This document shows positions 3,260-42,905 of a stretch of 64,000 bases of DNA, in pieces. The position numbers and the translations under genes were made by a program. Origin of the DNA: Naegleria gruberi (Eukaryota); the NCBI GenBank assembly GCA_000004985.1, contig GG738905.1; one strand, written 5' to 3'. Position 1 is the first letter of the stretch. Each line of letters opens with the position of its first letter. The notes below the pieces were generated by a model. The model had not been told where the DNA came from and did no database searches. It saw only the letters and a list, made by a program, of their open reading frames with translations.

Positions 3260-3319
3260 TGTAATTGTAATAAAACCAACTTTTACATTAACAATCATAT
3301 CACTAACTTTTCAAAGATC

Positions 3320-4640
3320 GTAAATCATGCAAGAACCAGTTCTTTGAGATTGAGAATATTGTATTGACAGAATCAAGTACGAAATTATGATAATAGTATT
3401 GGAAAGATGAGTTGATATTTGAATAGTAAATTGAAGTTTAGTTAGGGAAATCAGTTTTCTATCCAAGTTTGGAACCTTACATCCAACTTTTTTGAGCTTG
3501 TTCCAAATGAAAAACTATTCGAAATGGTTTAAATTAGCACCATGGATTGAACTATTCCATCCAACAAAAACAAAAAATGAAAGCAAATCTAATCTTTTCA
3601 ATTGCACTTCTACTTTTACTTGCAGTCCTCTCAGTTCAAGCAAATGACAGCTATCAAGCCAAACCTCCAGTCGTCGTTGTTGACAAGTATCACAAGCCAA
3701 AGCATTGTAAGAGAAAATGCTTAAAGCATAAGTGGATTAAGAAGTGTTTAAAACACAAACTCGTTGGTCAAAAGAAAGTCTGTGATCAATATGCCATTGT
3801 CGGAGCTGGTAAATGTCTTAAACATAAGAAATATTCCAAATGTGACAAGTATAGCAAGCCAACAAAGAAGTGTGTCTTGCATGCATACAAGATTGTTGGT
3901 TGTGCCAAGAAGAAGTACTGGAAAGTTTGTGATTCTTATGGAACAAAGAAGATTTGCATCAAGAAGGGTTACAAGAAATACTGTGCCAAACATAAGATTA
4001 TTAACAAGTGTTTCAAGAAGGGTGTTAAGAAGGTCTGTAAGAAATTCAAGAAGGTTCCAATCAAGAAATGTGAAAAGAAGAAGGTTTGCGACAAGTACAC
4101 TGTTGATTCCTACAATAAGAAGGTTTCCAAATGTAGATATGTTAAAAAATGTAAGATTGTTTCATGGGCAAAGAAATGTGCCAAGTATAAGAAGGTTAAA
4201 TATTGTAAGGAAAGAAAATCAGTTAAGAAATGTTGTCTCATTAAGAAGAAATACTGTGCCAAACATAAGACTATCAAGTTCTGTAAGCACAAGAAGATTC
4301 TTTCTAAATGTGTCAAATATCAAAAGAAGAAATATTGTGCCAAGACAATTGTCATTCCTCCAAGATGTATCAAGAAGAAGTATTATAAGAAGTGTTTGAA
4401 ACGTTCAAAGGGAAAGAAGATTTGTAAGAAATTTAAATTAGTTGGTGGAAAGAAGAAGTGTTGCAAGTCAATCAAAAAGAAGATTTGTATCAAGAGAAAG
4501 ACATGTAAGAAGTCATCAAAGCCAATCATCAAACCATCTTTGTAAATGATTATTTTCAAATGTTTCTAATACCTTAATAAAGCCAGAACCATTCTGCAAA
4601 CTCTTATTGCAAACAAATTTCAAGAAATGTTGGAAATCCT
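3320..4640. repeat. left arm of a ~1.3-kb inverted duplication; its partner is at ~41540..42905
   Basis: The reverse complement of 41540..42905 matches this segment. The match covers the gene and ~200 bp of flanks on each side, with a few indels in the flanks. Confidence 0.8.
3577..4545 (+). CDS. secreted, extremely Lys/Cys-rich basic protein (copy 1); the ORF is open from 3547
   Basis: A signal-peptide-like MKANLIFSIALLLLLAVLSVQA is followed by ~310 aa with about 30% Lys and ~38 regularly spaced Cys (KKC/CxK periodicity). A near-identical copy lies inverted at 41629..42600. Confidence 0.6.
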   Translation: MKANLIFSIALLLLLAVLSVQANDSYQAKPPVVVVDKYHKPKHCKRKCLKHKWIKKCLKHKLVGQKKVCDQYAIVGAGKCLKHKKYSKCDKYSKPTKKCVLHAYKIVGCAKKKYWKVCDSYGTKKICIKKGYKKYCAKHKIINKCFKKGVKKVCKKFKKVPIKKCEKKKVCDKYTVDSYNKKVSKCRYVKKCKIVSWAKKCAKYKKVKYCKERKSVKKCCLIKKKYCAKHKTIKFCKHKKILSKCVKYQKKKYCAKTIVIPPRCIKKKYYKKCLKRSKGKKICKKFKLVGGKKKCCKSIKKKICIKRKTCKKSSKPIIKPSL

Positions 4641-4750
4641 ATAGAAGTGAGTTCATTTGGAACAAGCTTCAATTAAACAATTTAAAATCAATTGTATAAG
4701 ATTAAGGTACTATTTTCATTATTAAGGTACTATTTTTACTATGAATGAGA

Positions 4751-4822
4751 TCCCGTGTAGTCCAATGGCTAGGATACCTGGCTTTCACCCAGGAGGTCCG
4801 GGTTCAATTCCCGGCATGGGAG
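4751..4822 (+). tRNA. tRNA-Glu (anticodon UUC)
   Basis: TCCCGTGTAGTCCAATGGCTAGGATACCTGGCTTTCACCCAGGAGGTCCGGGTTCAATTCCCGGCATGGGAG folds as a cloverleaf, with a 7-bp acceptor stem, a GGTTCAATTCC T-loop and anticodon TTC. A downstream TTTT run follows. Confidence 0.9.
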
Positions 4823-5324
4823 GGTCCTTTTGCATATCTTTTTACCAGGCAAGGAATGTAAAACAGTTAAATTTTGAAGTAAACTTCTTGATACAAGTAA
4901 TATTTTCAATGTACCAACCTTCTCATCTTTACTCTCAATGAGCCTAACACCAAGTCTTTCACTTGCCCAATTGAATGCAAGCCTCACACAAAGAAAACTT
5001 GCTTCTCCTCCATGAATGGCCTATCAAAAGTACATACTTATCCTTCAAAGCATGGAAAATTAATTATGGAGACGGGAGCTTGGACCTTCACGTGATACGT
5101 GATGGTGGTTGCTGCCACTAAAACAATTCAAAGGGAGCCTACTTTGATTTTTCACAGTATTTTAACACTTCTTTGATTGAATTGTAACAGTATGTAAATA
5201 AATTAAATTAATCCTAAAAACATAAAATTTTTATGATTTCTTATGAAATGTTAAATGTTAATAGTAAGAACCAGAGTGTGACCAGAAAATATAATATCTT
5301 AGTGGTTGTTATTGTCACATTTCA

Positions 5325-5402
5325 ATTATTATTTTGGACGGGAAGCCTGCCAGGAATATGGCAACAATCCCGCTACAGTCTTTGACTGTATGAACAGTGA
5401 AG
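5325..5402 (+). repeat. conserved ~75-bp element R2, copy A; the second copy is at 41178..41253
   Basis: GACGGGAAGCCTGCCAGGAATATGGCAACAATCCCGCTACAGTCTTTGACTGTATGAAC is ~90% identical between the copies. It contains an ACAGTC-TTT-GACTGT hairpin and resembles the 3' part of 5S rRNA (GGGA..CC.GCC.GGAATA...GCT..AG.CTTT). Both copies sit near tRNA-Glu genes. Confidence 0.5.
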
Positions 5403-5579
5403 GCAACTAATCTATTGATTGTTGGTTCAGTAAGTTATTGTTTAGAAAAGCTTGCTACGTGACCATCTATTTATCACCTTTAAATTTGATCTAATTAGAA
5501 AGAAACTTGTGGTTGATCAATAAACGATAAAATTTCGAATTTGAGTCTTCAAATATTGAAATAGTGTTCAAGATTAAAA

Positions 5580-5664
5580 GACTCAGCACCACAGGTTCCC
5601 AAGTTGTCTCCAACCTCAGTACTGATGTGGCTCGACGATGCTTAACTTCTCAAATCGGACGGGA
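5580..5664 (-). ncRNA. 5S rRNA-related sequence, 5'-truncated copy A (pseudogene or 5S-derived element)
   Basis: On the minus strand, GAAGTTAAGCATCGTCGAGCCACATCAGTACTGAGGTTGGAGACAACTTGGGAACCTGTGGTGCTGAGTCTTTT aligns without gaps to the last 74 nt of eukaryotic 5S rRNA at ~68% identity. This covers the loop E AGTACT, GGAGAC, TGGGAA and GGTGCTG segments and ends in a T-run. The 5' ~35 nt of a real 5S (GCCxACGGCCATACC...) are absent. Confidence 0.55.
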
Positions 5665-5784
5665 TGAGGTGCACTAAATTTATTAATAGAAACATGTCAT
5701 TCCAAAATTGTAAAATGATTAGCAAATCTAGGTTTCGATATTTTGAGGAAGGGGAAGTCTATTGAAACTTTATAATCTTGCTTA

Positions 5785-6264
5785 TTACTTGTTGTAAATA
5801 TTTTGTAAACACTTAATTCCATACTCAAATATTCCTTCAATAGCTTGTTGCCATTTCTTTCCTTCACCATGAGGACATGTAAATTCTGCCTTCCATTCCA
5901 ATAATGTGTTATCGAGCTTATCTGTTCCATTTGTAGTGATTGACTTTACTGAAATAGTTGCAAAGTAATCATTATTATATCCCTCCCATGGGATACCATC
6001 AACTAGAGAGTAGGTGTATGAAGAATTACGTAAATCCATGGCAATTAATCTTTCACGTTGAACAATACCATTTTTCATGGTGAGCTTTCGAATACCTCCA
6101 ACAGTATTATCCGATTGATTATTGTCCATTTCACTGCTGGCAACAGTATCATACCAAGTTGGTAAACCATTGAAAGAACCAATCAGTGACCAAACGGTTG
6201 ATGCACTAACATTTGGAATAACTCCACTCACATACACGTTAACAGTTTCGAATGCTCTTGACAT
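5785..6264 (-). CDS. SRPBCC / Bet v1-like (polyketide cyclase-dehydrase family) small protein
   Basis: 159 aa with the pattern typical of PF10604-type proteins (W..IG.F..LP.W...V.S.E ... GGIR.L....G..V.ERL...D.....Y.Y.L.DG.P...Y.....V.). Confidence 0.4.
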   Translation of the reverse strand: MSRAFETVNVYVSGVIPNVSASTVWSLIGSFNGLPTWYDTVASSEMDNNQSDNTVGGIRKLTMKNGIVQRERLIAMDLRNSSYTYSLVDGIPWEGYNNDYFATISVKSITTNGTDKLDNTLLEWKAEFTCPHGEGKKWQQAIEGIFEYGIKCLQNIYNK

Positions 6265-6483
6265 TTTTTCTTATTCTAATCTGTTGAATGAATTTCCCCT
6301 TTTTTTAACGAATCGTGTAAGAATTTTTTGTGCGTACTCGCAAATTAAAAAAGCACTATTTTTAATAAGCATAATTTTTTAGCTTATCCACACACACGTA
6401 CTAATCATAAGTATGAAAAAGTTATTTATATTATTTAGGAAAGTGAACCGTCAAACAAAACAAACAAAAAAAAACAAAGCACA

Positions 6484-7449
6484 ATGTCAAGCGAAATCAC
6501 AACATCAAATAACAAGAGCAGTATTCTTATTACTGGAGCAACAGGAACAATTGGAAAGCATTTATTGAAGTCACTTTCTGAACAGAAATCATTTGGTCAA
6601 TCAGTGAAGGTTTTGGTGAGGAATATTGAAAAGGCAAAACAAGAACTTGCAAATTATGTAAATAATCTTGATGTAGAATATATTCAAGGTGACTTGAATC
6701 AATTCGAATTAATTCCATCGAGTATTTTTGAAAAGATTGAAAGGGTTTTCGTTTTAACAGTGAGCGAACCAAATCAACCAAAAGTGGAAGAACAATTAAT
6801 TAACAAGATTCTTGAATATTCAAAGGATGATTTGAAACAAGTGATAAGATTATCTGGATTGGGAGCTTCAACAACCATTGAATCGAATAGTTTATTCAGA
6901 TATCATGGCGATTCTGAAGTTGTAATTGGTAATTTACTTTCAAATAAGGCACCAAGCGTTTCCTACGTAATTTTAAGACCTAATCTATTCATGCAAAACT
7001 TCCTTAGAGATGACATTCATTCAATCAAAAACTCATCTCAATTCTTCAAACCAAGAAACGATCATGGAATTCCATATCACATTAGTCATGTTGATGTTAG
7101 AGATATTGCCGATATGGCAGCTCAAATTCTCATTGAAAATCCAAATATTCATGGAGGACAAGTTTACAATATAACTGGACCTCAATCTTTGAATTATGAT
7201 CAAGTAGCTGAGATTATTTCCAAAGTTATTGGCAGACAAATTACTTGGACTAAAATTGATGAAATTGAGTTGGCTAATCAATTAAGCCAATTACCAAAGT
7301 TTTTAGTTATTGGGCTGGTGAGATTATTCCAATTTTACAAATTGAATGGAACCTCTGCTAATGTACATGCAGATTTTGAGATTGTCACTGGAAAGAAACC
7401 AAGATCTTTGGAACAATTCATTCAAGAAAATAAACACCATTTTGAATAA
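6484..7449 (+). CDS. NmrA-like / atypical SDR NAD(P)-binding protein
   Basis: An N-terminal Rossmann motif ILITGATGTIGKHLLKSL sits in a 321-aa protein with an NmrA/isoflavone-reductase-like layout. Confidence 0.55.
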   Translation: MSSEITTSNNKSSILITGATGTIGKHLLKSLSEQKSFGQSVKVLVRNIEKAKQELANYVNNLDVEYIQGDLNQFELIPSSIFEKIERVFVLTVSEPNQPKVEEQLINKILEYSKDDLKQVIRLSGLGASTTIESNSLFRYHGDSEVVIGNLLSNKAPSVSYVILRPNLFMQNFLRDDIHSIKNSSQFFKPRNDHGIPYHISHVDVRDIADMAAQILIENPNIHGGQVYNITGPQSLNYDQVAEIISKVIGRQITWTKIDEIELANQLSQLPKFLVIGLVRLFQFYKLNGTSANVHADFEIVTGKKPRSLEQFIQENKHHFE

Positions 7450-7510
7450 TGTTCAATCCACAATTAACAAACAACCTCCAAAAAATTGCTCTTATCCATG
7501 AACTAAAATT

Positions 7511-7583
7511 TGCCGACACCAGGGATCGAACCAGGGACCTTAAGATCTTCAGTCTTACGCTCTCCCAACTGAGCTATGTCGGC
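7511..7583 (-). tRNA. tRNA-Phe (anticodon GAA)
   Basis: The minus strand reads GCCGACATAGCTCAGTTGGGAGAGCGTAAGACTGAAGATCTTAAGGTCCCTGGTTCGATCCCTGGTGTCGGCA, a canonical tRNA-Phe. Confidence 0.9.
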
Positions 7584-7833
7584 TTCTTGTTCTTGATGAA
7601 TGGCGTTAAGTTTTGTGGGAAATAACAATTCGATTTGAGGTAAATTTTTGGTTAAAAATATCCTGATATTTACCGCCAAAAAAAAATCCACTTTTACGAA
7701 GCAAAAAAAATGCCAGAAATTCGTTGATAATCCACTTGTTGGTGGAAAGCATATTCTTCTTTAAATAACTCACAGCGTTATTGATGGAATTTTCCAACAA
7801 CAAAAAACAACAATAATAACAATAATAACAGAA

Positions 7834-9402
7834 ATGTCAAGCAGTAGACCAACAAGAGAAAGAAGATTACCAATTCATTTGGAAGATTATATCGTTGGTG
7901 AATTAGATTTACGAAAGAATTATGAAAAGGAAGAAAAGAAGAAACAAAAATTATTATTAAAGAAGAAGGCTGAAATTTCAAAGAAGGAACAAGCTGAAAA
8001 GAGAAAGAAAGAAGCCATAGAAGCAACAAAGAAAAAGAAGGAAGCTGTTAAAAAATCTATTAGAAAAAAGCCATCTTCATCATATTATACTTCATCTTCA
8101 ACAACAATTTCTAAAAGATCTTCATCTGCAATTACACCATATACAGATTATACTAATCCAAAATTTAAAGTTTTTACATCAACATCTGAAGCTAGAAACA
8201 AATTAATTGAAAAAACACCTGGTAATAAGATTTTAAAAGGGTCAGATGATGCTTCTAAATGGTCAATGTCAAAATTAGATACATCTATCAGATACAAATC
8301 ACTTAATATTTCAGATATTTTAAGTGGATGTTATTATGTACCTGGTAATAATCACAAATTAGATACAACTGGTAGTGATAGAGTACCTGCAGTTCAAATT
8401 TGTTTTTCATTTGATACAACTGGTTCAATGTCTTCATATTTAAATAATTTGAAATTTAAATTACAAACAATATGTCAACAATTAATGAATGATGTTAGAG
8501 GTTTAGAAATTGCAATTATTGCACATGGTGATTATGAAGATTCTAAAGATAATGGTTCATATTGTTTATACAAATTAGATTTTACAACAGATATTGAACA
8601 AATTATTTCATTTGTTCAATCAATTAATTCAACAAGTGGTTATGATGGTGATGAATGTTATGAAGCTGTTTTATTAGAAGCTCAATCTTTATCTTGGGTT
8701 AATGTTGAAAATACATTTACAAATAGATCACTTGTTGTAATTGGTGATGCTGATCCTCACAAATCAACTGAATGGTTTAATATTGATTGGAAACAAGAAA
8801 CAAGTAATTTATTTGATAATCATCATGTTAAAATTCATAGTGTTAGATGTGGTTCATCTTCATGGTCAACAAAAGATTTTTACAAAACAATTTCAGAAGA
8901 AACAGGTGGATCTGAATATTTATTAGATACATTTGAAAAAACAATTGAAATGTTTTGTGGATTAATTTATAGAGAAGCTGCTGATAATATTATGATGAAT
9001 GATACAACAATGCAAGCACATATTGATGGAGCAGTTTCAGGTGAAGTTACAATTGTTAAACCAACAATGTCTTCAAGTGATAAGATGATTGATGATGGTG
9101 AAAAGAGTGATGATATTACATCATTAGGTTCATATATTGTTACAGATGATGATATTTTAAAGATTCACACTGCAATTCATAGTACTTGTACAGAAGTTAA
9201 AATTAATGGTATTGAATTTGCAATTCAAATGAATGAAAGTTCATGTAGATTTGTAAGAGTTGATGGAGTTGTCTATATTGAACAAAATAAGGAAAAGAAG
9301 ACTAAGTATGCCAAGATGGCTTTAGAAGGAAAGAAATTAACTTGGATTTGTCATGCTGGTAATTGGGGTCTTATCATTGATGATAAAATTGAAAAGAGAT
9401 AG
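7834..9402 (+). CDS. von Willebrand factor A (vWA) domain protein with a Lys/Glu-rich N-terminal region
   Basis: MIDAS-like ICFSFDTTGSM is followed by IIAHGDY and LVVIGDADPH, typical of a vWA fold. The N-terminal ~80 aa are KKKEAxxKK low complexity. Confidence 0.5.
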   Translation: MSSSRPTRERRLPIHLEDYIVGELDLRKNYEKEEKKKQKLLLKKKAEISKKEQAEKRKKEAIEATKKKKEAVKKSIRKKPSSSYYTSSSTTISKRSSSAITPYTDYTNPKFKVFTSTSEARNKLIEKTPGNKILKGSDDASKWSMSKLDTSIRYKSLNISDILSGCYYVPGNNHKLDTTGSDRVPAVQICFSFDTTGSMSSYLNNLKFKLQTICQQLMNDVRGLEIAIIAHGDYEDSKDNGSYCLYKLDFTTDIEQIISFVQSINSTSGYDGDECYEAVLLEAQSLSWVNVENTFTNRSLVVIGDADPHKSTEWFNIDWKQETSNLFDNHHVKIHSVRCGSSSWSTKDFYKTISEETGGSEYLLDTFEKTIEMFCGLIYREAADNIMMNDTTMQAHIDGAVSGEVTIVKPTMSSSDKMIDDGEKSDDITSLGSYIVTDDDILKIHTAIHSTCTEVKINGIEFAIQMNESSCRFVRVDGVVYIEQNKEKKTKYAKMALEGKKLTWICHAGNWGLIIDDKIEKR

Positions 9403-9626
9403 GAAACCAATCCTTAAAAACCATAGTCGAGTGTAAATAAAACTAATCAAAAATTTATTGAAATTGTTCCAGATAAATTTATTAGAATTCTAGAAATAAT
9501 AAGTATTGTATCAACTGATTGTCAATGGAAAGAGGTATGAATAAACAATAAATCCCAACATATTGCTTATTGAACAGAAAGAGATAAGGAACAATAGATC
9601 TTTGAAAGTTGCGAATTTGATAGAAT

Positions 9627-12719: not shown

Positions 12720-13901
12720 TGGAAATTAGGGATTAAGATGGTGTGTAGTACTACAATAGTAGGGTAACCACCACTATTAATAAATTAATACTATTGTTGT
12801 GTTGCTTAATGAAAATTAAGTGGTGATTATTGCAGTGAGTTTCTGCAATGTGTGATGATGATAATCAAGAATCTTATTCTTCTGTTGTTGCTGTGTTGTT
12901 GTTCAGATAATTCTTTTTGAGAATTTATCGCGTCTTTTGAGGTAAATTGGTTTGTTACGTTAGTTAACTCTCAAAAAGCGAAAATAGGGGAATCAAATAT
13001 GGAACCGTATTTAGATCGATAACAATAACCAGTCCAAAACACAATGCAAGAGGTGTGACTTGTTGATTTCAGTTAGATGTATTCTTGGTTGACAAGATGA
13101 AAATAAATTCCGGTTTGTTGGAACAAGTTAATATAATGCACTGTGAGAAGAGATGAGAAGAGGATGGTAGGAAGGTGGTGGTTAGATAATGGTGTTATTC
13201 AATTAAAGACAAGATGATGATAGTGTTGACAAAGTCAATGAATAAACCACCACAGCAGTGCAATAGCGTTGTTGTTTGGTAATTTTTTGTGATGAAAATA
13301 CCTAAAGCGTTGGAAAAGGTATTGACAAACAAAAAGTATCGAATGATTTCGGTGATGTGTCGGCTGGGCTTGGTTCACAAGTTGAACACTCTTTTTATGT
13401 TGTCTTGTTTGTGGGATAACGAAAAACAAGAGGGATCCTTGCAGAGAACGTTGTTATTGTGCTACTTTTTTACTTCTGGATGTCAGTCGAGTCGCAAGTA
13501 TTTCCACTGGCTGAAAAGTGGAGATAATGGGTTTCAAATCGATGATTTTCATAACCCATGAAAGTAGTGAACGTAAGAATAAGAGTGAACTGGTGGCAGC
13601 TATGGCTAGAGATGGTCACAATCGCAAACAAAAACACCACAAATAGAGAGTTCACAAACAAGACTGGATGTGTGACTCGTGTTTGGTTGACTTCTCTTTT
13701 TGTACTGTGGTTGTAATATTGATAATATTTTGTTTATTGTGGTGAGTAAATTGAGAATGTCATTAAATCATCCCAATAATAAAGGTGAACTAGAGTGATT
13801 GTATATTTCCTACAGTATTAATATCCAAAATTTGATCCAACAAGTACTAAGGATGTTGTAATTATTATTGTTTGTTTAAAAATCAGTACTATCGGAAGGA
13901 G

Positions 13902-14315
13902 TTAAGCAGTCTTCTTGACAGCAGCCTTTTCAGGGTTTTTTGGTGTGGTATGTGAAACGTATGGCTTTAACTATTTTTTAAATGTTCCAAAACAATAGAA
14001 GAATTTCCAATATTATTGTTGTTATTATTATTTTAAATAATTCAATTTCAATCCACAAAATATTTAAATATAATCAAAGTAATGTGGATGATGGTAAACA
14101 TGATTAAATATTTCCAATAACAAATTAATTTTAAATGAACGTACTTTAAAGTCGGAAAGGTCTGGGCTAGCAAAGATTGGTACCTTTTCCTTTTCGAACA
14201 TAAAGTAACCATTTCTTTGAGAGTAATGACCCATTAATTTCTTTGGTTGTCTGGCAATGTTTGGTTGTTTTCCTCTTCGGAGAACTTGAAGAATAGATGA
14301 TGATGAAAGTCTCAT
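13902..14315 (-). CDS. mitochondrial ribosomal protein mL41 (MRPL41 / yeast MRPL27 family), 2 exons
   Basis: Exon 1 (14315..14145) ends KVPIFASPDLSDFK and exon 2 (13969..13902) reads LKPYVSHTTPKNPEKAAVKKTA. Together they match the PEFVVPDLTGFKLKPYVSY core of mL41. The intron runs 13970..14144 (175 bp, GTACGT...ATAG). The gene is divergent from the uS3 gene. Confidence 0.6.
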
Positions 14316-14747
14316 TTTTTATTTAAAAGCAATTTTATTTTTAATTGTTTGTAGTTATTCAATCTGTTTGTTTTCATAAGAAGTACTTCGTTCTACTATC
14401 ATCTCTTCTTACCATCATCATTCTACGAGGAGGAACAATATGCAATTGGTGAAGTAAATATTTAAATCCGAAAAGTTTTTGAAGAAAATTGAAAGGTAAT
14501 CTTCACACAAAGTTAAATATTCACAATGTTATTACTCTATCCACCAAGCATGTTCTTATTACTAGCCAATTTTATGTACATGATCAGAGTACGGACAGAG
14601 TATAGGGCAGTCGTCAAATTGTTTTGCTGCGAGTATCATGCTGGGAAATGAGGTTGTTGTTGAAATGTTCTTCTAAAAAATTTTTCATTGTAAAATACAA
14701 AAATACACGGTCAATATTAAAAATTGTTTGAAAAAAATTGCCAAAAA

Positions 14748-14848
14748 GTAAGTGCCTTACCTGCTTCTACGTTCTCTGACACGGGCTTATGAATTGTTGT
14801 TCTAATAATTTTCTTGAATAATAATTAATTTACTAACATCATCTACAG
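14748..14848 (+). other. 5'UTR intron of the uS3 gene (101 bp)
   Basis: GTAAGT at 14748, a TACTAAC branch-point-like motif at 14831, and an AG at 14847-14848 immediately before the ATG region. No in-frame ATG lies upstream. Confidence 0.5.
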
Positions 14849-14853
14849 ATAAC

Positions 14854-20964: not shown

Positions 20965-21060
20965 AAATTAAAAATGAAAAATCTAGAAAAAAATGGGTAT
21001 TAATCTGAGGTTATTTAAAAAATAGATACACATCTTCAGTGTCTAAATTTTGAGAATCAA
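20965..21060 (+). repeat. short conserved element X, copy A; a direct copy lies at 27890..27975
   Basis: AAAATGAAAAAT...GGTAT(T/C)AATCTGAGGTTATTTAAAAA..ACACATCTT(C/A)AGTGTCTAAATTTTGAGA is ~85% identical between the two loci. Both lie just outside the tRNA-Gly inverted pair. Confidence 0.5.
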
Positions 21061-21139
21061 CTACCATCTAATGGTTACTACATACTATTCAAAAATTGAG
21101 AATGGACATTGAAAGTTGGATGAAAGAAAAAGAAGCGAC

Positions 21140-21210
21140 TGCGTCGACCGGGAATTGAACCCGGGTCACGGCGATGGCAACGCCGTATTCTACCACTAAA
21201 CCATCGACGC
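21140..21210 (-). tRNA. tRNA-Gly (anticodon GCC)
   Basis: The minus strand reads GCGTCGATGGTTTAGTGGTAGAATACGGCGTTGCCATCGCCGTGACCCGGGTTCAATTCCCGGTCGACGCA. It is identical to the copy at 27614..27684, and ~50 bp of 5' flank and ~80 bp of 3' flank are also inverted-repeated. Confidence 0.9.
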
Positions 21211-21344
21211 TTCACATTTATTTAGAATGTAACCTTAATTCGACACTAAGGGGATCGCTTTTATGTATTTATTTATTGAAAATTAAAATCTAAAAGCATA
21301 TGTGAAAAAACTCAAAACCTTATTAATTTCAATATTAAAGTTTT

Positions 21345-27031: not shown

Positions 27032-27613
27032 ATTTGTATTCTTTTAAGATGATTGAGTTAGAGGCATTATTAATTGTAGGCCAATCATCGAGGCAAGTTT
27101 CTTCAATATAGTTGTCAAATGAACACTATGAAGTATTACACTTGAGGTTAAGGCGCATTTCCTTCAACAAAAAAAACAACTCAAAATAAACACTTTAACA
27201 TGAAGTTCTCAATTTTGGCTCTTTTCCTGTACTATTTGTCTGCTCACTCTATTACATTAGAAAAAGACAGTTCTTAACTGATGCTTTGTGCCACATTACG
27301 GCAATTGCTAATACTTAGACCTACTCTGAATATATATTTATTGTGAATTGATTGCATTACAGTTCTATTGTAAAGATCAATGGCACTGTAATCAACAGTC
27401 AAATTTATCATCATTTATGGGTATGGCTGCAATGTGGATTACAATATCAACTAATAAGCAGTTTATATTCTCCATTATGGATATTATATTATATAATATT
27501 TGGATTGGATGATTGAAGGCGCAAAATAGTTTACCTTATCCGAAAAATTAAAGTAACTGGTAACTTCGTATCCCTTAGTGTCGAATTAAGGTTACATTCT
27601 AAATGAATGTGAA

Positions 27614-27684
27614 GCGTCGATGGTTTAGTGGTAGAATACGGCGTTGCCATCGCCGTGACCCGGGTTCAATTCCCGGTCGACGCA
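27614..27684 (+). tRNA. tRNA-Gly (anticodon GCC), inverted partner of 21140..21210
   Basis: It has the same 71-nt sequence as the minus-strand copy, followed by a T-run (TTTTTCTTTC). Confidence 0.9.
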
Positions 27685-28433
27685 GTCGCTTCTTTTTCTT
27701 TCATGGTCCATTCTCAATTTTTGAATATCATGTAGGAACCGTTTGAGGGTAGCTTGTGCCTTAGATGACTGATTGTATGGAGTAAAAAAATTCTTCTCAT
27801 TTTTTTTTGAAATCACAAATATTAGCATATTATGATTCCTTTTTGGACTAATAATTCCATTTACTTTTAATTAAAACCATTTACTCAATAAAATGAAAAA
27901 TTCAGTAAAAAAATAGGTATCAATCTGAGGTTATTTAAAAATCAACCACACATCTTAAGTGTCTAAATTTTGAGATAATTGATCTAAATTGTTTTATCCT
28001 TCCTTTTGTTATGATAGAGAGATGGTCTTACTCGCCTCGCATATTAAGCATGGATTACGAATGTTTGATCCAAAATTCAGATAATCCAATAATTGCATTG
28101 GAATATTTGAAAAATCACGCCGACAAATAATATGACTTGGATAAGGACTTGTTTAATTTGAATTTCGTTATCAAAGCAGTGGATCTTAATTCAGAAGTTT
28201 TTGACGTAGTATAATTTCTATCAAAACGATCCTAGTGTCATGCTGAAAGCAGCTTTTGGAGGTGGTCCTAATGTAAAAGGTTTATGTAAGATTAAGGATT
28301 TCACTCTTATCAAGAAGGTAATGAAAGCGAATCCACTCGCTCTTAAAAATTGTAAAGAAATTCAGATAAATGGGCCCACTAGCTCATAAAAGGTAGAATT
28401 ATATCAACACAAGAATTTTAACATAAATGTGCT

Positions 28434-28504
28434 CGTCTCGTGGTGTAATGGTAGCATAGTGGACTTTGAATCCATTGACGGAGGTTCGATTCCTCCCGAG
28501 ACGG
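28434..28504 (+). tRNA. tRNA-Gln (anticodon UUG)
   Basis: CGTCTCGTGGTGTAATGGTAGCATAGTGGACTTTGAATCCATTGACGGAGGTTCGATTCCTCCCGAGACGG has an anticodon loop CTTTGAA, a GGTTCGATTCC T-loop and a downstream T5 run. Confidence 0.85.
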
Positions 28505-28630
28505 TAAACGTGGCGAGCCATGAAATTTTTAACTCATTTTTTTAACATTACAATGTTAACTTGGTAAATTCTGGAAACTTGAAAAAAAAATGTATTTCAG
28601 TGTAGCTGATCCCAATAGGATCATGAGGTA

Positions 28631-29634
28631 TTATCTTGAATTAAGAGAACATGAGTAATATTTTCTGTGTGCTTTACCAACAAGCAGTGATAATAGACTT
28701 TGAATTTCATGCCAATTATCAATGATTTTAGGATTATAGGATTTAACTAAAATAATATTTAAAGCCTTAATAAAGCCTCTATGATTTAAATTGAGAATTG
28801 AATTGTGTCTATCCCAAAAAGTGTCATGGGGACGAAGCTTACAGGATGCTCCTGTAAGATTCGTGAATTTAGTTAAGAAATATCTTCTAAAACATTCGGT
28901 TTCTTCACAGTAGTATATGAAACGTTCCAAATCCACTTCACATTCACAGTTATCACAATAAACTTGACGAAATTGTCTAATATGTGAGTCGGTCATGTTT
29001 CTCCAAATTGACAATTTGGTTTCAGTGTCAAATCTTTGATCCATATATTTCAAATTGATATGAGTGAGGGACTGACTTTGGTTAAAAGGTAAGTCAGATT
29101 TATCCTCAAAAATATCTAAATATTCTTTTCTCTGGATATCTTTGATGTATTTTCTATAGTCAAAGATGATTGTTTTCTTATTAGTATTAATTAAAATCTT
29201 TTGGTTTTGGGATAATAGTTTGGTAATATCAATCATATTTTGTCCTTGTGCACCTTCTTTTGCTAATTTATCAACTATAATATTCTCTGGATCTTCATGC
29301 CCTTTCACTTTAACTAGATGGATATTTAAATGTTTATCCTTAATGGTACCAAAGAATTCTTCTTGAAATCCTTGAAAGTCTCCTCTGTAACTCTTTTTTA
29401 AAACTTCTATAGCAACTTGACTATCAGTAGGAACATTAGCATTGGAATGATTTGGCAGCATTTTGATTGCTGTCAAAAAAGCCATGATTTCAGCCACGTT
29501 ATTGGAATATTCTTCATGAATCTTGAAGGAATATTTGAAACTTCTATTTTCTGAATTAAATATATTAATTCCAAATCCCACTTGGTTTTCAATCTTTGAT
29601 CCATCTGTGTGAATATTAAATGAATGACCCCCAT
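28631..29634 (-). CDS. RNase H (type 1) domain ORF lacking an in-frame start codon upstream of the domain; possibly retroelement-derived or domesticated
   Basis: The frame opens right after a TAA and reads FGSNGGHSFNIHTDGSKIENQVGFGINIF ... NNVAEIMAFLTAIKML ... TDSQVAIEVL ... IHLVKVKGHEDPENIIVDKLAKEGA, which covers the Asp/Glu/Asp/His motifs of RNase H. The first Met is internal to the domain. A Cys-rich tail CDNCECEVDLERFIYYCEETECF follows. No reverse transcriptase lies nearby. Confidence 0.5.
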
Positions 29635-29682
29635 TTGATCCAAATTAAAATCATTAAATTGTTAAAAAAAACTTGAAAAAAA

Positions 29683-34594: not shown

Positions 34595-34915
<321 letters not shown>

Positions 34916-37563: not shown

Positions 37564-37691
37564 TTTTTAAGCTAAAAATATAAATTTCCTTCCATCATTA
37601 TTATTAATTCATAATTATAATAATATTTATTTAATTAATAATATTAATAATATCAAGTTTTATAATAAATTAATGTGGATTTATTTTACAA

Positions 37692-38077: not shown

Positions 38078-38292
38078 TTTTGAGATTTTTGAGATTTTTT
38101 TCTTGTTTGATTATTTTTGAAAATCTTGCCACGCAGTTTTAATATCTGTAAGAAATGTTACCACACAAGTAAGGTAAAAGGACAAAGTTCACTCATTCCC
38201 AACACAAGTTTAAGGCCAGGTTGTTGACAATCTCAACCAAGTTATAAAAAGGAAGCAACAAATCAATCTATATTGTAATAGACAAATAATTG

Positions 38293-38365
38293 TTTATGAG
38301 CAGCCCCGCTAGCTCAGTCGGTAGAGCGTTGGACTTTTAATCCAACGGTCGTGGGTTCGAGCCCC
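38293..38365 (+). tRNA. tRNA-Lys (anticodon UUU)
   Basis: GCCCCGCTAGCTCAGTCGGTAGAGCGTTGGACTTTTAATCCAACGGTCGTGGGTTCGAGCCCCACGTGGGGCG, followed by TTTTTT. Confidence 0.9.
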
Positions 38366-38418
38366 ACGTGGGGCGGTTGCAGCTTTTTTGTTGATTTCTT
38401 TGTGGGATGATTCATGTT

Positions 38419-39414
38419 TTATTCAAAAACACAGGTGATATCTGAAAAGATTTCACAACAGGATTCAAAAAGAGTAAATTCTTTCAATCTAATAAAATGG
38501 AGCATATCGCCATTAGCTCTTAACAATAATTTTGACCTATTATCAAATCCAATGAACGCTGTCTTGAACTCAATTAATTTATCCTCCAATATAATCATAT
38601 TATCTTTTAAAGTAACTAAATAGAATACGCTATCATACATCCCTGAATGTGCTTGTATCATAGGATAATACCAATCTACAGCAAGATAGATATAACCGCA
38701 TTCATCCTGAGCTACTGATTTCACTTGATGAATAGTTGTTCTCTTTAACTTGTTGAGCATCATTTGTTCAACATTGATTGTAGAACTTGTTTCAAAGGTC
38801 TTCTTGTCAATGTAACAAATCTCTGCTTTGGAAGAAATTGAAATAATTTGATTGGAATTCATCTTATTCATTTGCATGTGCGAAATTTTTTGAGGTGGAT
38901 TTAAGATTTTTCCTATTTCCTTACCATCACTCAAAGATAGTACAGTAATACCCTTGTCCACATATAAAAACATTTGATTATCATGATGATCGATACACCA
39001 TTTCATCGAATTTTGTTTCTCTGAAGGTATTGGAAAATTCCACGCCACTTGCACTTTGATATCTCTGCTCAAATTCCATCTCTCAAATCTCCCCTTACCC
39101 TTGTTGAATATGACCAATGAATCTTCATCAATGAAAGCAGCACTTGAGATGGAAACAACTGGATTTGTAAGCTTGAATTCTTTCATGTAAATCATATTCG
39201 TATTTTTAACTTGGGAAATTGAGAGAAGATATGAATTGACACTCAAAATTGAGAATGTCTGTTGATTGGCATGCATAGCCAAGACAGAATTTTTCAATAG
39301 TGTGTGCGGAGGAAAGATGATAGAACGTGTGTGTAGTGGAAGAGGGCTTCGTTTCGTTCGCGTTGGGAATATTGGTTTTGACATTTTTTTTTTGATTGAT
39401 ATTTCACCCAGCAA
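38419..39414 (-). CDS. hypothetical protein (331 aa)
   Basis: A long ORF with no recognisable motif, though beta-rich. Confidence 0.3.
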   Translation of the reverse strand: MLGEISIKKKMSKPIFPTRTKRSPLPLHTRSIIFPPHTLLKNSVLAMHANQQTFSILSVNSYLLSISQVKNTNMIYMKEFKLTNPVVSISSAAFIDEDSLVIFNKGKGRFERWNLSRDIKVQVAWNFPIPSEKQNSMKWCIDHHDNQMFLYVDKGITVLSLSDGKEIGKILNPPQKISHMQMNKMNSNQIISISSKAEICYIDKKTFETSSTINVEQMMLNKLKRTTIHQVKSVAQDECGYIYLAVDWYYPMIQAHSGMYDSVFYLVTLKDNMIILEDKLIEFKTAFIGFDNRSKLLLRANGDMLHFIRLKEFTLFESCCEIFSDITCVFE

Positions 39415-39564
39415 TTTTTAATGTACTACTTTCTTTGAAATTCTTAGAACTTTTCAATTTCTTTGTAACAATTTAAAAAAGTTTACAATTTATGAAAAGG
39501 AAAATAAAGTTCATCATTTGACAAAAAAATAATTGGCAACCAATTTTCTGTTACCTCTTCAGCA

Positions 39565-41025
39565 ATGCCGCAGCATATTTTCTCTGTATTATCATCGGAT
39601 AGTGTCTTTGATATTTGCAAATTTCTGAGTGCTTCCGATATTGTTTTTAATGTTCGATCGGTGTGTAGAGCCACTTATCAATGTATTAATATTCATCAAG
39701 AAGAAAATGGTGGTGAGGATAATACAAAATATGATGATCGATACATTAGGTTGATTGGATCAAATTTGGAGGGTTATGATGAATGTCTGGGAAAGTATTT
39801 GCATTTAGGAAGATTATTGAACGAGAGAGAATTGAGGATTGTTGAAAATTTGGATGGAGCAATTACTGATAGATATGAAAGAGCTAAAATTAAATTGAGA
39901 ATGTCTTTGAGATTCAAGTATATTGAAATGACTTTCAAACCATATGAGGATGGTCACTTTATGATTAGAGTGACTAGATCAGCGTTACAGGGATTTGATT
40001 CAAATCAAAAAGATACTAATCCTATTGTAGAACAATTTAATGATATATTGAGGAGATTTAAGGAAATATCACTCTATCGGACATTATATTCGAAATTGGT
40101 GAATGAAAATGATTATGTAGTTTTAATAGGAGTTTTTAATGAAGGAAAACCATTCATTAATGACTTACATTCCTTTAATTGTAATTTTGAGCAAAGAGAG
40201 GCTCTTAATCTTTCATTTGAAGGAAGATTGTTATCCCTTGCTTCTCAAAGGAGGTCTAATTATTGGAAACACTTTTCAGATTTTAGAATATTTTTGGAAA
40301 TTGTTGATTCTGTGCTTGGTCAAAATTATTTAGATGATATGAGCTCACATACAATTATAATGGTATCTCAACAAGAATTTATAATTCCAAATAGGACTTT
40401 AATTATTGATTTGAATAGCACATTTGATTATGGTATTGATGATAGGCAAATTAACAAAGTAAGAGATGTGCCATGTACATTACATTGCCGAGTTAATCCG
40501 TTCAATAGGCAACTTATTTATCAACCATCTATGATTGAACAAAGCATTACAATGAATCTTACAAGTATTGCCTTATTTTGTGGAATCGGACTTTATCTAG
40601 GAGGCTTACAGTATTTTACACGGATTCCATCGTTTAGATTTACCAGAGATTTATATTTTACCAAAGATTCAAATCAGATAATGCCATGGATTCTTATTGC
40701 TATAGATTGCTTACTTGGATTTTCTGCATCGTTATATTTTACTGGAACTGAATTTTTTGTGGAAGAAGGAGATTTAAAGAAATTGACTTACTATTCCTAT
40801 TTAGCAAAATGGATAGCTTGTGGTTTCGAATGTGGAGGAGATCCTTGGTCAATGATGAAATGTTTGCATTTACCACCATTAGAGATTGCTCATAACGTTG
40901 TTGGTTTTGGTAGTTTTGCTGCTCTAGGAATTATATTATACAATGAATTTGATACTCTCATTCAAGCAACAATGAGCTCATTTTCCTATTGGAAATCCAA
41001 ATATTTAGGTACTAAAAAAGAATAA
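39565..41025 (+). CDS. F-box-like protein with C-terminal transmembrane segments
   Basis: The N-terminal IFSVLSSDSVFDICKFLSASDIVFNVRSVCRATYQCI is F-box-like. The C-terminal third has 3-4 hydrophobic helices. Confidence 0.35.
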   Translation: MPQHIFSVLSSDSVFDICKFLSASDIVFNVRSVCRATYQCINIHQEENGGEDNTKYDDRYIRLIGSNLEGYDECLGKYLHLGRLLNERELRIVENLDGAITDRYERAKIKLRMSLRFKYIEMTFKPYEDGHFMIRVTRSALQGFDSNQKDTNPIVEQFNDILRRFKEISLYRTLYSKLVNENDYVVLIGVFNEGKPFINDLHSFNCNFEQREALNLSFEGRLLSLASQRRSNYWKHFSDFRIFLEIVDSVLGQNYLDDMSSHTIIMVSQQEFIIPNRTLIIDLNSTFDYGIDDRQINKVRDVPCTLHCRVNPFNRQLIYQPSMIEQSITMNLTSIALFCGIGLYLGGLQYFTRIPSFRFTRDLYFTKDSNQIMPWILIAIDCLLGFSASLYFTGTEFFVEEGDLKKLTYYSYLAKWIACGFECGGDPWSMMKCLHLPPLEIAHNVVGFGSFAALGIILYNEFDTLIQATMSSFSYWKSKYLGTKKE

Positions 41026-41177
41026 TTTATTGGCCAAACAACAGACAACTACATGAAAGCAATAACATACAAATGTAAATATTAATTTTTACACGTAATT
41101 ACATAGGAATACATTCAATTAGAGTATCCACACGAAATGAAGCAAAAAGATTAGATGTACATGGTTTGTTATTTCAC

Positions 41178-41253
41178 TTAATTATTAGACGGGAAGCCTG
41201 CCAGGAATATGGCGACTGTCCCGCTACAGTCTTTGACTGTATGAACTGTGAGG
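41178..41253 (+). repeat. conserved element R2, copy B
   Basis: The same sequence as 5325..5402, here ~200 bp upstream of the second tRNA-Glu. Confidence 0.5.
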
Positions 41254-41456
41254 TACGTCGTCTTTCGAGTCAGTAAGAGAGAGTGATTGGAGAAAGAGAG
41301 GATGAGTTAGTTCATTTATTGATTTTGAAATTGATCACCTAGATAAAAAGTATTTTGGGTAAAAAAATTCATAAATTGATCTCTAAGATATTGTTGACAA
41401 TAAGGCAAGACATCCGTTATTATAATATTAGGGAAATATTAAAATCAGTAGTGAGA

Positions 41457-41528
41457 TCCCGTGTAGTCCAATGGCTAGGATACCTGGCTTTCACCCAGGA
41501 GGTCCGGGTTCAATTCCCGGCATGGGAG
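41457..41528 (+). tRNA. tRNA-Glu (anticodon UUC), second copy
   Basis: Identical to 4751..4822 and on the same strand as that copy, even though the neighbouring Lys/Cys gene is inverted. Confidence 0.9.
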
Positions 41529-41539
41529 GATGTTTTGCC

Positions 41540-42905
41540 TTTTAATACCGACTTGCATCCTTTGTTGAAATTGTTTTGCAATAAGAGTTTGCTTTATTAA
41601 GGTATTATAAACATTTGAAAATAAGTATTTACAAAGATGGTTTGATGATTGGCTTTGATGACTTCTTACATGTCTTTCTCTTGATACAAATCTTCTTCTT
41701 AATTGACTTACAACACTTCTTCTTTCCACCAACTAATTTAAATTTCTTACAAATCTTCTTTCCCTTTGAACGTTTCAAGCACTTCTTATAATACTTCTTC
41801 TTGATACATCTTGGAGGAATGACAATTGTCTTGGCACAATACTTCTTCTTTTGATATTTGACACATTTAGAAAGAGTCTTCTTGTGCTTACAGAACTTGA
41901 TAATCTTATGTTTGGCACAGAAGAATTTCTTCTTAATGAGACAACATTTCTTAACTGATTTTCTTTCCTTACAATATTTAACCTTCTTATACTTGGCACA
42001 TTTCTTTGCCCATGAAACAATCTTACACTTTTTAACATATCTACATTTGGAAACCTTCTTATTGTAGGAATCAACAGTGTACTTGTCGCAAACCTTCTTC
42101 TTTTCACATTTTTTGATTGGAACCTTCTTGAATTTCTTACAGACCTTCTTAACACCCTTCTTGAAACACTTGTTAATAATCTTATGTTTGGCACAGTATT
42201 TCTTGTAACCCTTCTTGATGCAAATCTTCTTAGTTCCATAAGAATCACAAACTTTCCAATACTTCTTCTTGGCACAACCAACAATCTTGTATGCATGCAA
42301 GACGCACTTCTTTGTTGGCTTGCTATACTTGTCACATTTGGAATATTTCTTATGTTTGAGACATTTACCAGCACCGACAATGGCATATTGATCACAGACC
42401 TTCTTTTGACCAACGAGCTTGTGTTTTAAACACTTCTTAATCCACTTGTGCTTTAAGCATTTTCTCTTACAAATTCTTGGCTTGTGATACTTGTCAACAA
42501 CGACGACTGGAGGTTTGGCTTGATAGCTGTCACTTGCTTGAACTGAGAGGACTGCAAGTAAAAGTAGAAGTGCAATTGAAAAGATTAGATTTGCTTTCAT
42601 TTTTTGTTTTTGTTGGATGGAATAGTTCAATACATGGTGCTAATTTAAACCATTTCGAATAGTTTTTCATTTGGAACAAGCTCAAAAAAGTTGGATGTAA
42701 GGTTCCAAATTTGGATAGAAAACTGATTTCCCTAACCAAACTTCAATTTACTATTCAAATAATATCAACTCATCTTTCCAAAACTATTATCATAATCTCA
42801 AGGACTTGTTCTTCCATGATTTACGACCTTGTACATTTTTTAACTAAGGTATTATAGTAATTTCGAATAATTTGATTATTTATTTGATTCTGTCAATACA
42901 ATGCT
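41540..42905. repeat. right arm of the ~1.3-kb inverted duplication; partner of 3320..4640
   Basis: The reverse complement matches the left arm. The gene copies differ by a handful of substitutions and one 3-nt indel. Confidence 0.8.
41629..42600 (-). CDS. secreted Lys/Cys-rich basic protein (copy 2)
   Basis: About 98% identical to copy 1. The differences are N->S, KHCK->RICK, a KKYCAKHKTIKF->KKFFCAKHKIIKF indel, and I->T. Confidence 0.6.
   Translation of the reverse strand: MKANLIFSIALLLLLAVLSVQASDSYQAKPPVVVVDKYHKPRICKRKCLKHKWIKKCLKHKLVGQKKVCDQYAIVGAGKCLKHKKYSKCDKYSKPTKKCVLHAYKIVGCAKKKYWKVCDSYGTKKICIKKGYKKYCAKHKIINKCFKKGVKKVCKKFKKVPIKKCEKKKVCDKYTVDSYNKKVSKCRYVKKCKIVSWAKKCAKYKKVKYCKERKSVKKCCLIKKKFFCAKHKIIKFCKHKKTLSKCVKYQKKKYCAKTIVIPPRCIKKKYYKKCLKRSKGKKICKKFKLVGGKKKCCKSIKKKICIKRKTCKKSSKPIIKPSL

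Follow-up and report, generated by a model that had tools for sequence, protein, structure and literature searches.

How did two nearly identical copies of one gene come to lie in opposite orientation about 37 kb apart on one Naegleria gruberi contig, each beside a tRNA-Glu(UUC) gene? We addressed this question in the 64,000-nt stretch of DNA that carries both copies (the window). The gene is called K here, its right-hand copy K', and the relevant features are the following.

1935..3259, + strand: TGL, a transglutaminase-like gene adjoining the left copy, of which the 3' part (2508 onward) belongs to the donor segment
3317..4638, + strand: left (parental) arm, made up of 260 nt of upstream region, K itself and a 93-nt 3' flank
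3577..4545, + strand: K gene, left copy, 322 aa
4751..4822, + strand: tRNA-Glu(UUC), T1, in similarity unit 4746-4833
5337..5400, + strand: R2 block, left copy, which forms hairpins, in blastn unit 5319-5400
4639..41549, no strand: 36.9-kb interior between the arms, with ordinary cellular genes and six further tRNA genes
41188..41251, + strand: R2 block, right copy (R2'), in blastn unit 41171-41251
41457..41528, + strand: tRNA-Glu(UUC), T2, in similarity unit 41452-41538
41550..42833, - strand: right (derived) arm of the inverted repeat
41629..42600, - strand: K' gene, right copy, 323 aa
42881..42932, - strand: TGL coding relics outside the right arm
42930..42968, - strand: tRNA-Glu pseudogene fragment, oriented like K' and covering tRNA positions 7-47

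The inverted duplication reported in the first-pass annotation is genuine: a repeat search of the window, blastn and MAFFT all recovered the arms in opposite orientation, with a tRNA-Glu gene at both loci. The repeat search returned three blocks (3416-4255/41922-42761, 840 nt, 98%; 4243-4583/41591-41931, 341 nt, 96%; 4596-4638/41550-41592, 43 nt, 84%), which blastn joined into one alignment of 3369-4638 with 42812-41550 (95.1% identity over 1278 columns with gaps, E=0), and in the MAFFT alignment weak homology reaches 3317/42833. Two copies longer than 1 kb and more than 90% identical that run in opposite directions along a single molecule, with flanks unrelated except for short relics, make the pair a dispersed inverted segmental duplication (low-copy repeat) inside a single N. 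gruberi chromosome. Each arm carries a single ORF, the intronless K or K'. The identity of about 98% first ascribed to the copies holds for the coding part, where 946 of 969 aligned nucleotides match (97.6%; 23 substitutions, one 3-nt indel and 7 amino-acid changes), and for the 185 nt upstream of the ATG (181 identical, 97.8%), but not for the unconstrained parts, which are about 87% identical (69 of 79 positions in the 3' flank; 27 of 31, with many gaps, in the far 5' part of the arms). Arm homology ends 93 nt beyond the K stop codon. As originally proposed, the boundary of the duplication lies between gene and tRNA, the arms being inverted and the two tRNA genes, which are 100% identical, both lying on the + strand. 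T1 is 206 nt downstream of the K stop; T2 is 100 nt from the K' stop, and its 3' end lies 22 nt from where the right arm ends. The flanks common to T1 and T2 amount to about 16 nt only. R2 likewise accompanies both loci, on the + strand each time, as a 66-nt block with 4 mismatches between the copies (89% identity over the 82 nt of the blastn unit) and with only these two copies in the window. Its folding beats that of shuffled sequence (z -2.4 to -5.3), so that R2 may be conserved for a function instead of being a neutral patch left by templated copying.

Such a pair might be a product of assembly, either through a repeat that was collapsed or misjoined or through allelic haplotypes set in cis. 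One observation counts in that direction: the public N. gruberi protein set contains no identical or nearly identical counterpart of K, of K' or of the SDR gene to the right of the arm. The missing proteins indicate that the older assembly or annotation is incomplete here. Two metagenome contigs from an independent environmental strain related to the window strain bear directly on the junctions: L003 spans the left junction, from TGL into K, and L004 the right outer junction, from the TGL relic to the region upstream of the SDR gene. Because these contigs carry the left and right outer junctions in an independent strain, they argue strongly against an artefact and show both junctions to be real; their coverage does not extend to the inner junctions. 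In addition, the K copies differ by their 23 substitutions, by several private indels and by wholly different flanks with decayed relics. An artefact in any of these forms is effectively excluded, and we attach almost no probability to it.

The direction of copying was read from TGL. Its ORF matches an N. gruberi protein at 100% identity, is continuous in L003, so that no intron is evident in the copied part, and is intact at the left locus only. Outside the right arm, relic 42915-42932 matches TGL 2508-2525 and relic 42881-42918 matches TGL 2700-2742; the two are joined at an ATCA microhomology, TGL 2525-2699 having been deleted in the window strain, and the relic in L004 is longer (TGL 2508-2544). 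Because the intact gene is on the left and its relics lie outside the right arm, the right copy is derived from the left. The donor segment (2508-4638, 2.13 kb) comprises the 3' part of TGL, the intergenic promoter region, K and 93 nt of 3' flank; its copy is inverted, lies 37 kb away and ends 22 nt downstream of T2. The far end of the copy is fused to inverted tRNA-Glu positions 7-47, a partial copy that the earlier reading had missed, through three nucleotides (GGT, 42930-42932) common to tRNA position 47 and TGL 2508. This is the one breakpoint at which microhomology is readable; at the other junctions the age of the event, with neutral divergence of about 10%, has blurred the edges.

All matches of the right locus map to a single 2.9-kb donor region (2508-5400), in mixed orientation and with sharp edges; no further segment is shared by the right and left loci, and their spacers are unrelated. 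There are four donor pieces: the R2 unit (direct), the tRNA unit (direct), TGL-K (inverted) and tRNA positions 7-47 (inverted). Several nearby donor pieces were thus found in mixed orientation at one site, the pattern of a templated rearrangement, and chance adjacency can be neglected in a genome of about 41 Mb with 924 tDNAs. As far as the sequence can tell, T2, together with the short leader and trailer around it, and R2' would be direct copies of donor pieces 4746-4833 and 5319-5400, so that the tRNA-Glu unit and R2 were probably copied as separate short pieces. The earlier description as duplication and inversion is right as to the inverted duplication, and is better recast as one copy-and-paste event from left to right. 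With moderate confidence we take the best fit to be one complex, replication-based event of serial template switching; a small number of linked events of this type would do so equally well. A replication fork would have stalled or broken near Pol III genes, the nascent strand would have switched template several times between nearby loci (FoSTeS/MMBIR-like), and the four pieces would have been laid down in mixed orientation at the right locus. The useless parts (the TGL copy, the partial tRNA and the flanks) later decayed. Both K genes and 185 nt upstream were retained under purifying selection, so that the dose of a predicted secreted, polycationic, disulfide-rich protein was doubled. A single event is supported by the agreement among the presumably neutral divergences of all pieces (dS, flanks, TGL relics, tRNA fragment and R2). 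It would require a return to the local template, since no donor match was found for the 200 nt between R2' and T2 (41252-41451), and T2 and R2' could stem from a separate, older duplication. The window contains a second mixed-orientation case, in which the contiguous stretch 20971-21252 is copied as an inverted tRNA-Gly piece (27572-27752) plus a direct piece (27890-27975).

The duplication had been called recent, with gene conversion between the arms as an option. Between K and K', dN is 0.009 and dS 0.096, and the presumably neutral parts of the copies differ by about 6-13% (neutral flanks about 10-13%, TGL relics about 9%, tRNA-Glu fragment about 13%), so the duplication is not recent. A three-way comparison over 381 sites with an outgroup strain that is 2.6-2.8% diverged gave 14 sites unique to the right copy, 3 unique to the left and 7 unique to the outgroup, and these site patterns place the duplication before the split from that strain, as do the junctions carried by L003 and L004. 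Gene conversion is not needed: synonymous differences are evenly spread over the three thirds of the gene (6, 4 and 5) and the relics outside the arms are as diverged as dS, so no conversion tract is visible. Both K genes are under purifying selection, as seen in the dN/dS of 0.09 and in the conservation upstream of the ATG.

Other histories were weighed against serial template switching. T2, and with it R2', may already have been resident from an older duplication of short Pol III-type units, the K copy arriving later: a fork running head-on into T2 would have stalled 22 nt from its 3' end, and the nascent strand, using the opposite strand as template, would have copied T2 positions 7-47, moved on to TGL-K at the left locus and finally returned. 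The location of the insert end, the inversion of the tRNA fragment relative to T2, the weak similarity of the T1 and T2 flanks and the spacer without a donor match all suit this two-step course, and the GGT microhomology is common to it and the main model. We nevertheless consider it unlikely, as it leaves the donor gene's own adjacency to tRNA-Glu and R2 unexplained and the divergence of R2 (6-11%) fits the age of the K copy. The identical order of K, tRNA-Glu and R2 outward from either K copy would follow from a simple 2.9-kb inverted duplication (3' part of TGL, K, tRNA-Glu and R2) with subsequent small tRNA and R2 inversions and deletions. This, however, demands that about 90 nt be inverted twice independently while a functional tRNA is retained exactly, and the loss of spacer homology where arm flanks are still 87% identical; if old paralogues homogenized by gene conversion are assumed instead, the even synonymous differences and the equally diverged relics outside the arms stand against them. 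Histories of this sort seem to us highly improbable.

The remaining alternative is RNA-based. L1-type chimeric retrocopies join a small RNA to an mRNA copy that is truncated at its 5' end, and in Dictyostelium the TRE3 elements choose sites downstream of tRNA genes. A tRNA-targeting non-LTR retrotransposon could similarly have acted at a nick downstream of T2, reverse transcribing a read-through TGL-K transcript, with 5' truncation at TGL 2508 and a template switch of the enzyme onto tRNA-Glu RNA yielding a chimeric retrocopy. The right locus does combine a truncated 5' end with a sense small RNA, in that tRNA-Glu 7-47, itself 3'-truncated and joined through microhomology, precedes TGL 2508; homology stops 93 nt past the stop codon; and the insert 3' end faces the 3' end of a + strand tRNA, a geometry that recurs in a 5'-truncated RNase H ORF by tRNA-Gln and in a 5'-truncated 5S copy 40 nt from tRNA-Asn. 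Two 5S copies also have differing 5' truncations and intact 3' ends. Unlike such retrocopies and TRE3 insertions, the K copy has no poly(A) remnant, just the 21-nt tRNA trailer lying between arm end and T2, and no significant target-site duplication: the sole candidate, the 8-mer TTTTAATA at 41540 and 43007, has a chance probability that we estimate from window base composition at p~0.2, and it is deleted in L004. The copy also takes in the promoter and a portion of the upstream gene, inserted 37 kb from the donor despite about 924 tDNA targets genome-wide, and lies in a window without a reverse transcriptase domain. Moreover, the tRNA-Gly duplication takes in 42 nt of 5' flank, and DNA-level copying therefore certainly occurs here. 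On balance a retrocopy is doubtful, somewhat more so than the two-step course.

Serial template switching has parallels in yeast segmental duplications, which arise from broken forks via microhomology-based replication (PMC2518615), and in the MMBIR model (PMC2621351). The Naegleria copy resembles FoSTeS/MMBIR cases in its local donor, its inverted segment, its several short donor pieces of mixed orientation, the 3-nt microhomology at the readable junction and the lack of a poly(A) tract or significant target-site duplication; it differs in its age and in that one copied piece is a working tRNA gene. In yeasts, tRNA genes frequently bound rearrangement breakpoints (PMC2817429). Both ends of the derived copy likewise abut tRNA-Glu sequence in a Pol III-rich window (8 tRNA genes within 64 kb, where the genome averages about 1 per 44 kb), but here the tRNA sequence was itself copied, in partial and inverted form, and no LTR or Ty-like elements are involved. 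Yeast replication forks reportedly pause at tRNA genes in a polar manner, as Deshpande and Newlon are said to have found in 1996.

Within the interior are about 21 ORFs of 100 aa or longer, along with a further six tRNA genes and one 5S-like sequence. Its genes are housekeeping (ribosomal protein S3, actin-like, Tim44-like and others), its G+C content is uniform (0.29-0.37), and a comparison of its two halves found no paralogy between them. A composite transposon or mobile island was rejected on the housekeeping interior, the uniform G+C and the decayed donor relics at the right copy. Inverted low-copy repeats such as int22h in human F8 can recombine with each other (non-allelic homologous recombination) and thereby cause inversions. 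The 1.3-kb inverted arms, 95-98% identical around 37 kb of unique sequence, are comparable and could mediate inversion of the interior by homologous recombination; unlike int22h-type repeats they are short and about 5% diverged, so recombination between them would be infrequent.

K belongs to a Naegleria-specific, uncharacterised protein family with at least five members in N. gruberi. Among 1.8 billion representatives 17 relatives were found; those traced to an organism are all Naegleria, and the rest come from run or metagenome assemblies. Both proteins have a signal peptide, 33% Lys (33.5% in the left copy) and 32 Cys spaced about every 9 residues, a spacing conserved across Naegleria paralogues; K is rich in Tyr as well. 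A Pfam profile search gave no match, none of the PDB chains searched matched at E<=1, and the structure model is of low confidence (pLDDT 40). Apicomplexan oocyst wall proteins are Cys-periodic secreted wall proteins of protists, and K shares with them a signal peptide and regular Cys spacing; it differs in matching no Pfam family or PDB chain and in being one-third Lys.

The locus is a new instance of a known, ordinary kind of rearrangement and changes no general principle. It is an unusually detailed case for a little-studied protist lineage, in that the donor, the direction of copying, the relative age, one readable junction and the selection acting on each copy have all been established. 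An orphan secreted-protein family is seen growing by local duplication, and tRNA genes both mark the copied material and belong to it. Speculatively, Pol III genes (tRNA and 5S) in Naegleria may be habitual fork-stall sites that seed local mixed-orientation copying, with the K arms flipping the 37-kb interior as a standing polymorphism. We think this improbable; if true, one mechanism would cover the inverted tRNA-Gly pair, the extra tRNA-Glu, the truncated 5S copies and the duplication of a neighboring protein gene, and would help account for the 924 tRNA genes of the genome (PMC2888827). Users of the older N. gruberi gene set should note that it lacks both K copies and that a third K-like paralogue is present there fused with an unrelated SAM/PB1 gene model.

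A repeat search of the window, which is gene-dense, about 32% G+C, and scattered with tRNA genes, returned one long inverted repeat, made up of three pairs of collinear arms of 840 nt (98%), 341 nt (96%), and 43 nt (84%). Blastn joined 3369-4638 and 42812-41550 into a single alignment (95.1%, 1278 columns), and weak arm homology was found to reach 3317/42833 using MAFFT. Each arm carries a copy of a gene for a Lys/Cys-rich secreted protein, called K in the left arm and K' in the right, and 23 substitutions and a single codon indel separate the two ORFs. Outward from either copy, the order is K, a tRNA-Glu gene, and R2, a 66-nt block with sharp edges:

Features of the two loci
3577-4545, + strand, K ORF, uninterrupted, 322 aa
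42600-41629, - strand, K' ORF, uninterrupted, 323 aa
4751-4822, + strand, tRNA-Glu(UUC), T1
41457-41528, + strand, tRNA-Glu(UUC), T2
5337-5400, + strand, R2 block
41188-41251, + strand, R2' block

T1 and T2, both called by ARAGORN and Rfam, are identical in sequence. R2 and R2' are distinguished by 4 mismatches, and the window contains no further copy. The structure described in the first-pass annotation (inverted arms, gene copies, a tRNA-Glu pair, and R2) is thus present in full. Ordinary genes fill the 36.9-kb interior between the arms, and its halves showed no paralogy when the window was compared with itself by tblastx, ruling out an ancient 40-kb palindrome. In principle, the interior could be inverted through arm recombination.

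The direction of copying was revealed by the gene adjoining left K. The ORF at 1935-2768 encodes a transglutaminase-like protein (TGL; Pfam PF04473/PF01841) that is 100% identical to one Naegleria gruberi protein. Just outside the right arm lie two relics of this gene and, directly beyond them, part of a tRNA-Glu gene:

Relics outside the right arm
42881-42918, same strand as K', TGL relic matching TGL 2700-2742
42915-42932, same strand as K', TGL relic matching TGL 2508-2525
42930-42968, K' sense and inverted relative to T2, tRNA-Glu fragment (tRNA positions 7-47)

The tRNA fragment has 5 mismatches and a 2-nt deletion, and at its junction with the TGL part the two overlap by a shared GGT. 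Because TGL is intact at the left locus only and is represented by relics at the right, the left copy is the parent and the donor segment, 2.13 kb long, starts at 2508 and ends at about 4638.

A single ENA metagenome assembly supplied two contigs of a close relative, L003 and L004. L003 spans the Roc gene through TGL to K and is 97.2% identical to window 350-3738, and L004 is 93.7% identical to 42915-44130. L004 opens with 37 nt that correspond to TGL 2508-2544 in reverse complement, indicating that the other strain also joins a TGL relic to sequence upstream of SDR, the gene to the right of the right arm. L004 retains part of the relic that was lost in the window strain by a deletion between two ATCA motifs, and the tRNA fragment has decayed differently in the two. 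At the left junction and at the outer junction on the right, this excludes an assembly misjoin or haplotypes placed in cis, both of which the first-pass annotation had raised as a concern. In L003, TGL is a single continuous ORF of 443 aa; the window TGL lacks 7 nt (AGTTGAC) at 2772/2773 and its frame shifts, giving ORFs 1935-2936 and 2795-3259. The cause is either a sequencing error or a true frameshift in this allele, and the reference TGL model (393 aa) presumably bridges the frameshift by an intron.

The same contigs bear on the age of the duplication. A three-way comparison at 381 shared positions gave 14 sites unique to the right arm, 3 to the left arm, and 7 to L003, so the left arm and L003 group together and the duplication predates the strain split. 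It had been called recent on the basis of 98% identity. That figure turns out to reflect constraint, not youth: dS between K and K' is 0.096 and dN is 0.009 (ratio 0.09), and the arms are identical at 69/79 positions of the 3' flank and 27/31 of the far 5' part, compared with 181/185 in the 185 nt upstream of the ATG. Unconstrained sites have diverged by about 10%, and purifying selection is acting on both coding sequences and both promoters. Gene conversion between the arms had also been suggested, but no conversion tract was seen and synonymous differences are spread evenly across the gene thirds (6, 4, and 5). A stretch of 35-37 nt in the left arm (3346-3391), containing a 19-mer identical to TGL 2721-2739, is absent from the right arm and L003. 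The ends of the missing stretch differ (GAGATT/GAAATT vs AATA/AATA), and these are independent, microhomology-flanked deletions. The long left-arm form is therefore ancestral, and an insertion in the left arm is excluded.

The orientation of the duplicated elements is mixed, with K inverted and both tRNA-Glu and R2 direct. The N. gruberi genome is about 41 Mb in size. It contains 924 tDNAs (PMC2888827), a density of about one per 44 kb over some 45 anticodon classes, so the presence of tRNA-Glu at both loci is not due to chance. All matches of the right locus (41000-43250) to the left region lie within 2508-5400:

Pieces of the donor region at the right locus
5319-5400, direct, R2 unit, 89%
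4746-4833, direct, tRNA unit, tRNA identical and 13/16 flank positions matching
2508-4638, inverted, TGL-K
tRNA positions 7-47, inverted

An 11-mer scan found no additional donor pieces at the right locus, and the spacers K-T1, T1-R2, and R2'-T2 were no more similar than shuffled sequences in either orientation (Smith-Waterman). A 19-nt match of the T1 downstream flank to sequence flanking the tRNA fragment was dropped, with 1/300 or 247/500 shuffles depending on the scoring scheme. The piece divergences of 6-13% fit a single age.

Short, sharp-edged pieces from one small region, in mixed orientation and with microhomology, are the signature of template switching. We therefore favor serial template switching during replication or break-induced repair (PMC2518615, PMC2621351), in one complex event or a few linked ones, by which the pieces would have been deposited together; tRNA genes have been described as breakpoints (PMC2817429). 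In the main alternative to this, which we consider less likely, T2 and R2' would have been resident beforehand and a fork meeting T2 head-on would have added only TGL-K and the tRNA fragment. SDR is the sole gene that the N. lovaniensis SDR locus has in common with the window locus, and tRNA-Glu is absent at the distant K-family loci of N. fowleri and N. lovaniensis. Reverse transcription, with a tRNA-targeted non-LTR element producing a chimeric retrocopy, would account for an insert whose 3' end points at the 3' end of T2. It would also fit the same geometry of a 5'-truncated RNase H ORF (28631-29644, - strand) beside tRNA-Gln, and two 5S-like sequences whose 5' truncations, gauged against the N. 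lovaniensis 5S gene, are of unequal extent. However, we consider this origin improbable: the copy takes in a promoter as well as a piece of the gene upstream, lies only 37 kb from its source, and has no poly(A) tract, the only candidate target-site duplication is TTTTAATA, which is not significant, and the window contains no reverse transcriptase. Our search found no literature on tRNA-targeted retroelements in Naegleria.

The event doubled a gene that is under selection and looks expressed, and it may also have provided an additional functional tRNA-Glu gene. The duplication is real, well resolved, and mechanistically ordinary. It is a segmental duplication, local and inverted, whose junctions are occupied by Pol III genes, and the abundance of tRNA genes in this genome had been noted before. 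Rfam gave no hit for R2 at a threshold as loose as E<=5, and neither JGI metagenome contigs nor the loci compared from N. fowleri and N. lovaniensis yielded a copy. R2 folds into a pair of hairpins and does so better than its shuffled versions (z -2.4 to -5.3); it could be an uncharacterized small RNA or simply a templated patch.

A second, nested example of mixed orientation was found at 20971-21252, a contiguous stretch that recurs 6.3 kb away as two pieces. This region and the 5S-like copies are as follows:

Other Pol III-associated features
27572-27752, inverted, tRNA-Gly piece, core 99%, edge 85%
20971-21055 and 27890-27975, direct, D5 (an 86-nt block), 87%
21140-21210, - strand, tRNA-Gly(GCC)
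27614-27684, + strand, tRNA-Gly(GCC)
5578-5699, - strand, 5S-like copy, Rfam '5S rRNA', 56 bits
48502-48584, - strand, second 5S-like copy, 97.6% identical, truncated further, 40 nt from tRNA-Asn

The inverted tRNA-Gly arms comprise 133 nt at 99% and 55 nt at 85%, and the higher identity of the core than of the edges points to gene conversion around the tRNA gene at a later time. Relative to the N. lovaniensis 5S gene (105 bits), the copy at 5578-5699 lacks the first ~26 nt, and both window copies are probably pseudogenes with intact 3' ends. In N. lovaniensis (L002, 19373-19857), a tRNA-Met gene is followed, about 295 nt downstream, by a full-length 5S rRNA gene; 5S-tRNA gene linkage may be general across Naegleria. 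In the RNase H ORF, the RNase H domain is complete and precedes a Cys-containing tail of 200 aa. The ORF has no ATG, has stop codons upstream, and runs with its 3' end toward that of tRNA-Gln (28433-28505), and thus looks like a 5'-truncated retroelement remnant. At five tRNA genes (7511-7583, 28433-28505, 38303-38375, 41457-41528, and 48388-48462), the 3' end of a convergent gene or element lies about 20-130 nt from the tRNA 3' end, which may reflect genome compaction or an insertion preference.

The K protein has a typical signal peptide (MKANLIFSIALLLLLAVLSVQA), is 33.5% Lys, and contains 32 Cys spaced mostly 9-10 residues apart, with recurring D-S/K/Q-Y motifs. It has no relative in Pfam or the PDB, and a profile search among 1.8 billion representative proteins returned only 17 relatives. 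Those that could be traced are uncharacterized proteins from N. gruberi, N. fowleri, and N. lovaniensis and proteins of environmental assemblies without an organism name. No K relative was present in the metagenome contigs searched. Cys positions are kept in an N. gruberi paralogue 46-50% identical to K, so the Cys periodicity characterizes the family and is not simply a product of low complexity. Neither window copy was found in the public protein collection, and the N. gruberi reference set has no near-identical protein for either copy or for the SDR gene at 43217. A third K-like sequence in the reference annotation (P0002) is 87-88% identical over the C-terminal half (150 aa), in a gene model that fuses it to an unrelated SAM/PB1 protein absent from the window. 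The AlphaFold2 model of K was unusable (pLDDT 40). Based on composition, K would be a secreted, disulfide-cross-linked, polycationic protein, and it could be antimicrobial or serve a structural or adhesive role, such as in the cyst wall or matrix. No literature on Cys-rich proteins of the Naegleria cyst wall was found. As an uncharacterized, Naegleria-restricted family, K is of modest interest in its own right.

A few other features of the window stand out. The 2.1 kb at 12720-14853 contain no ORF of at least 100 aa amid dense surroundings and have no Rfam match at the gathering threshold; the 12-14 kb composition window covering most of this stretch has an unusually strong GC skew (+0.28). 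Two large genes, at 45263-48280 and 60565-62985, contain internal tandem repeats. One encodes a kinase in which a 75-nt (25-aa) unit is repeated about 12 times, and the other an Asn/Ser/Gly-rich protein, probably a surface glycoprotein, whose 231-nt repeats abound in N-x-S/T sites.
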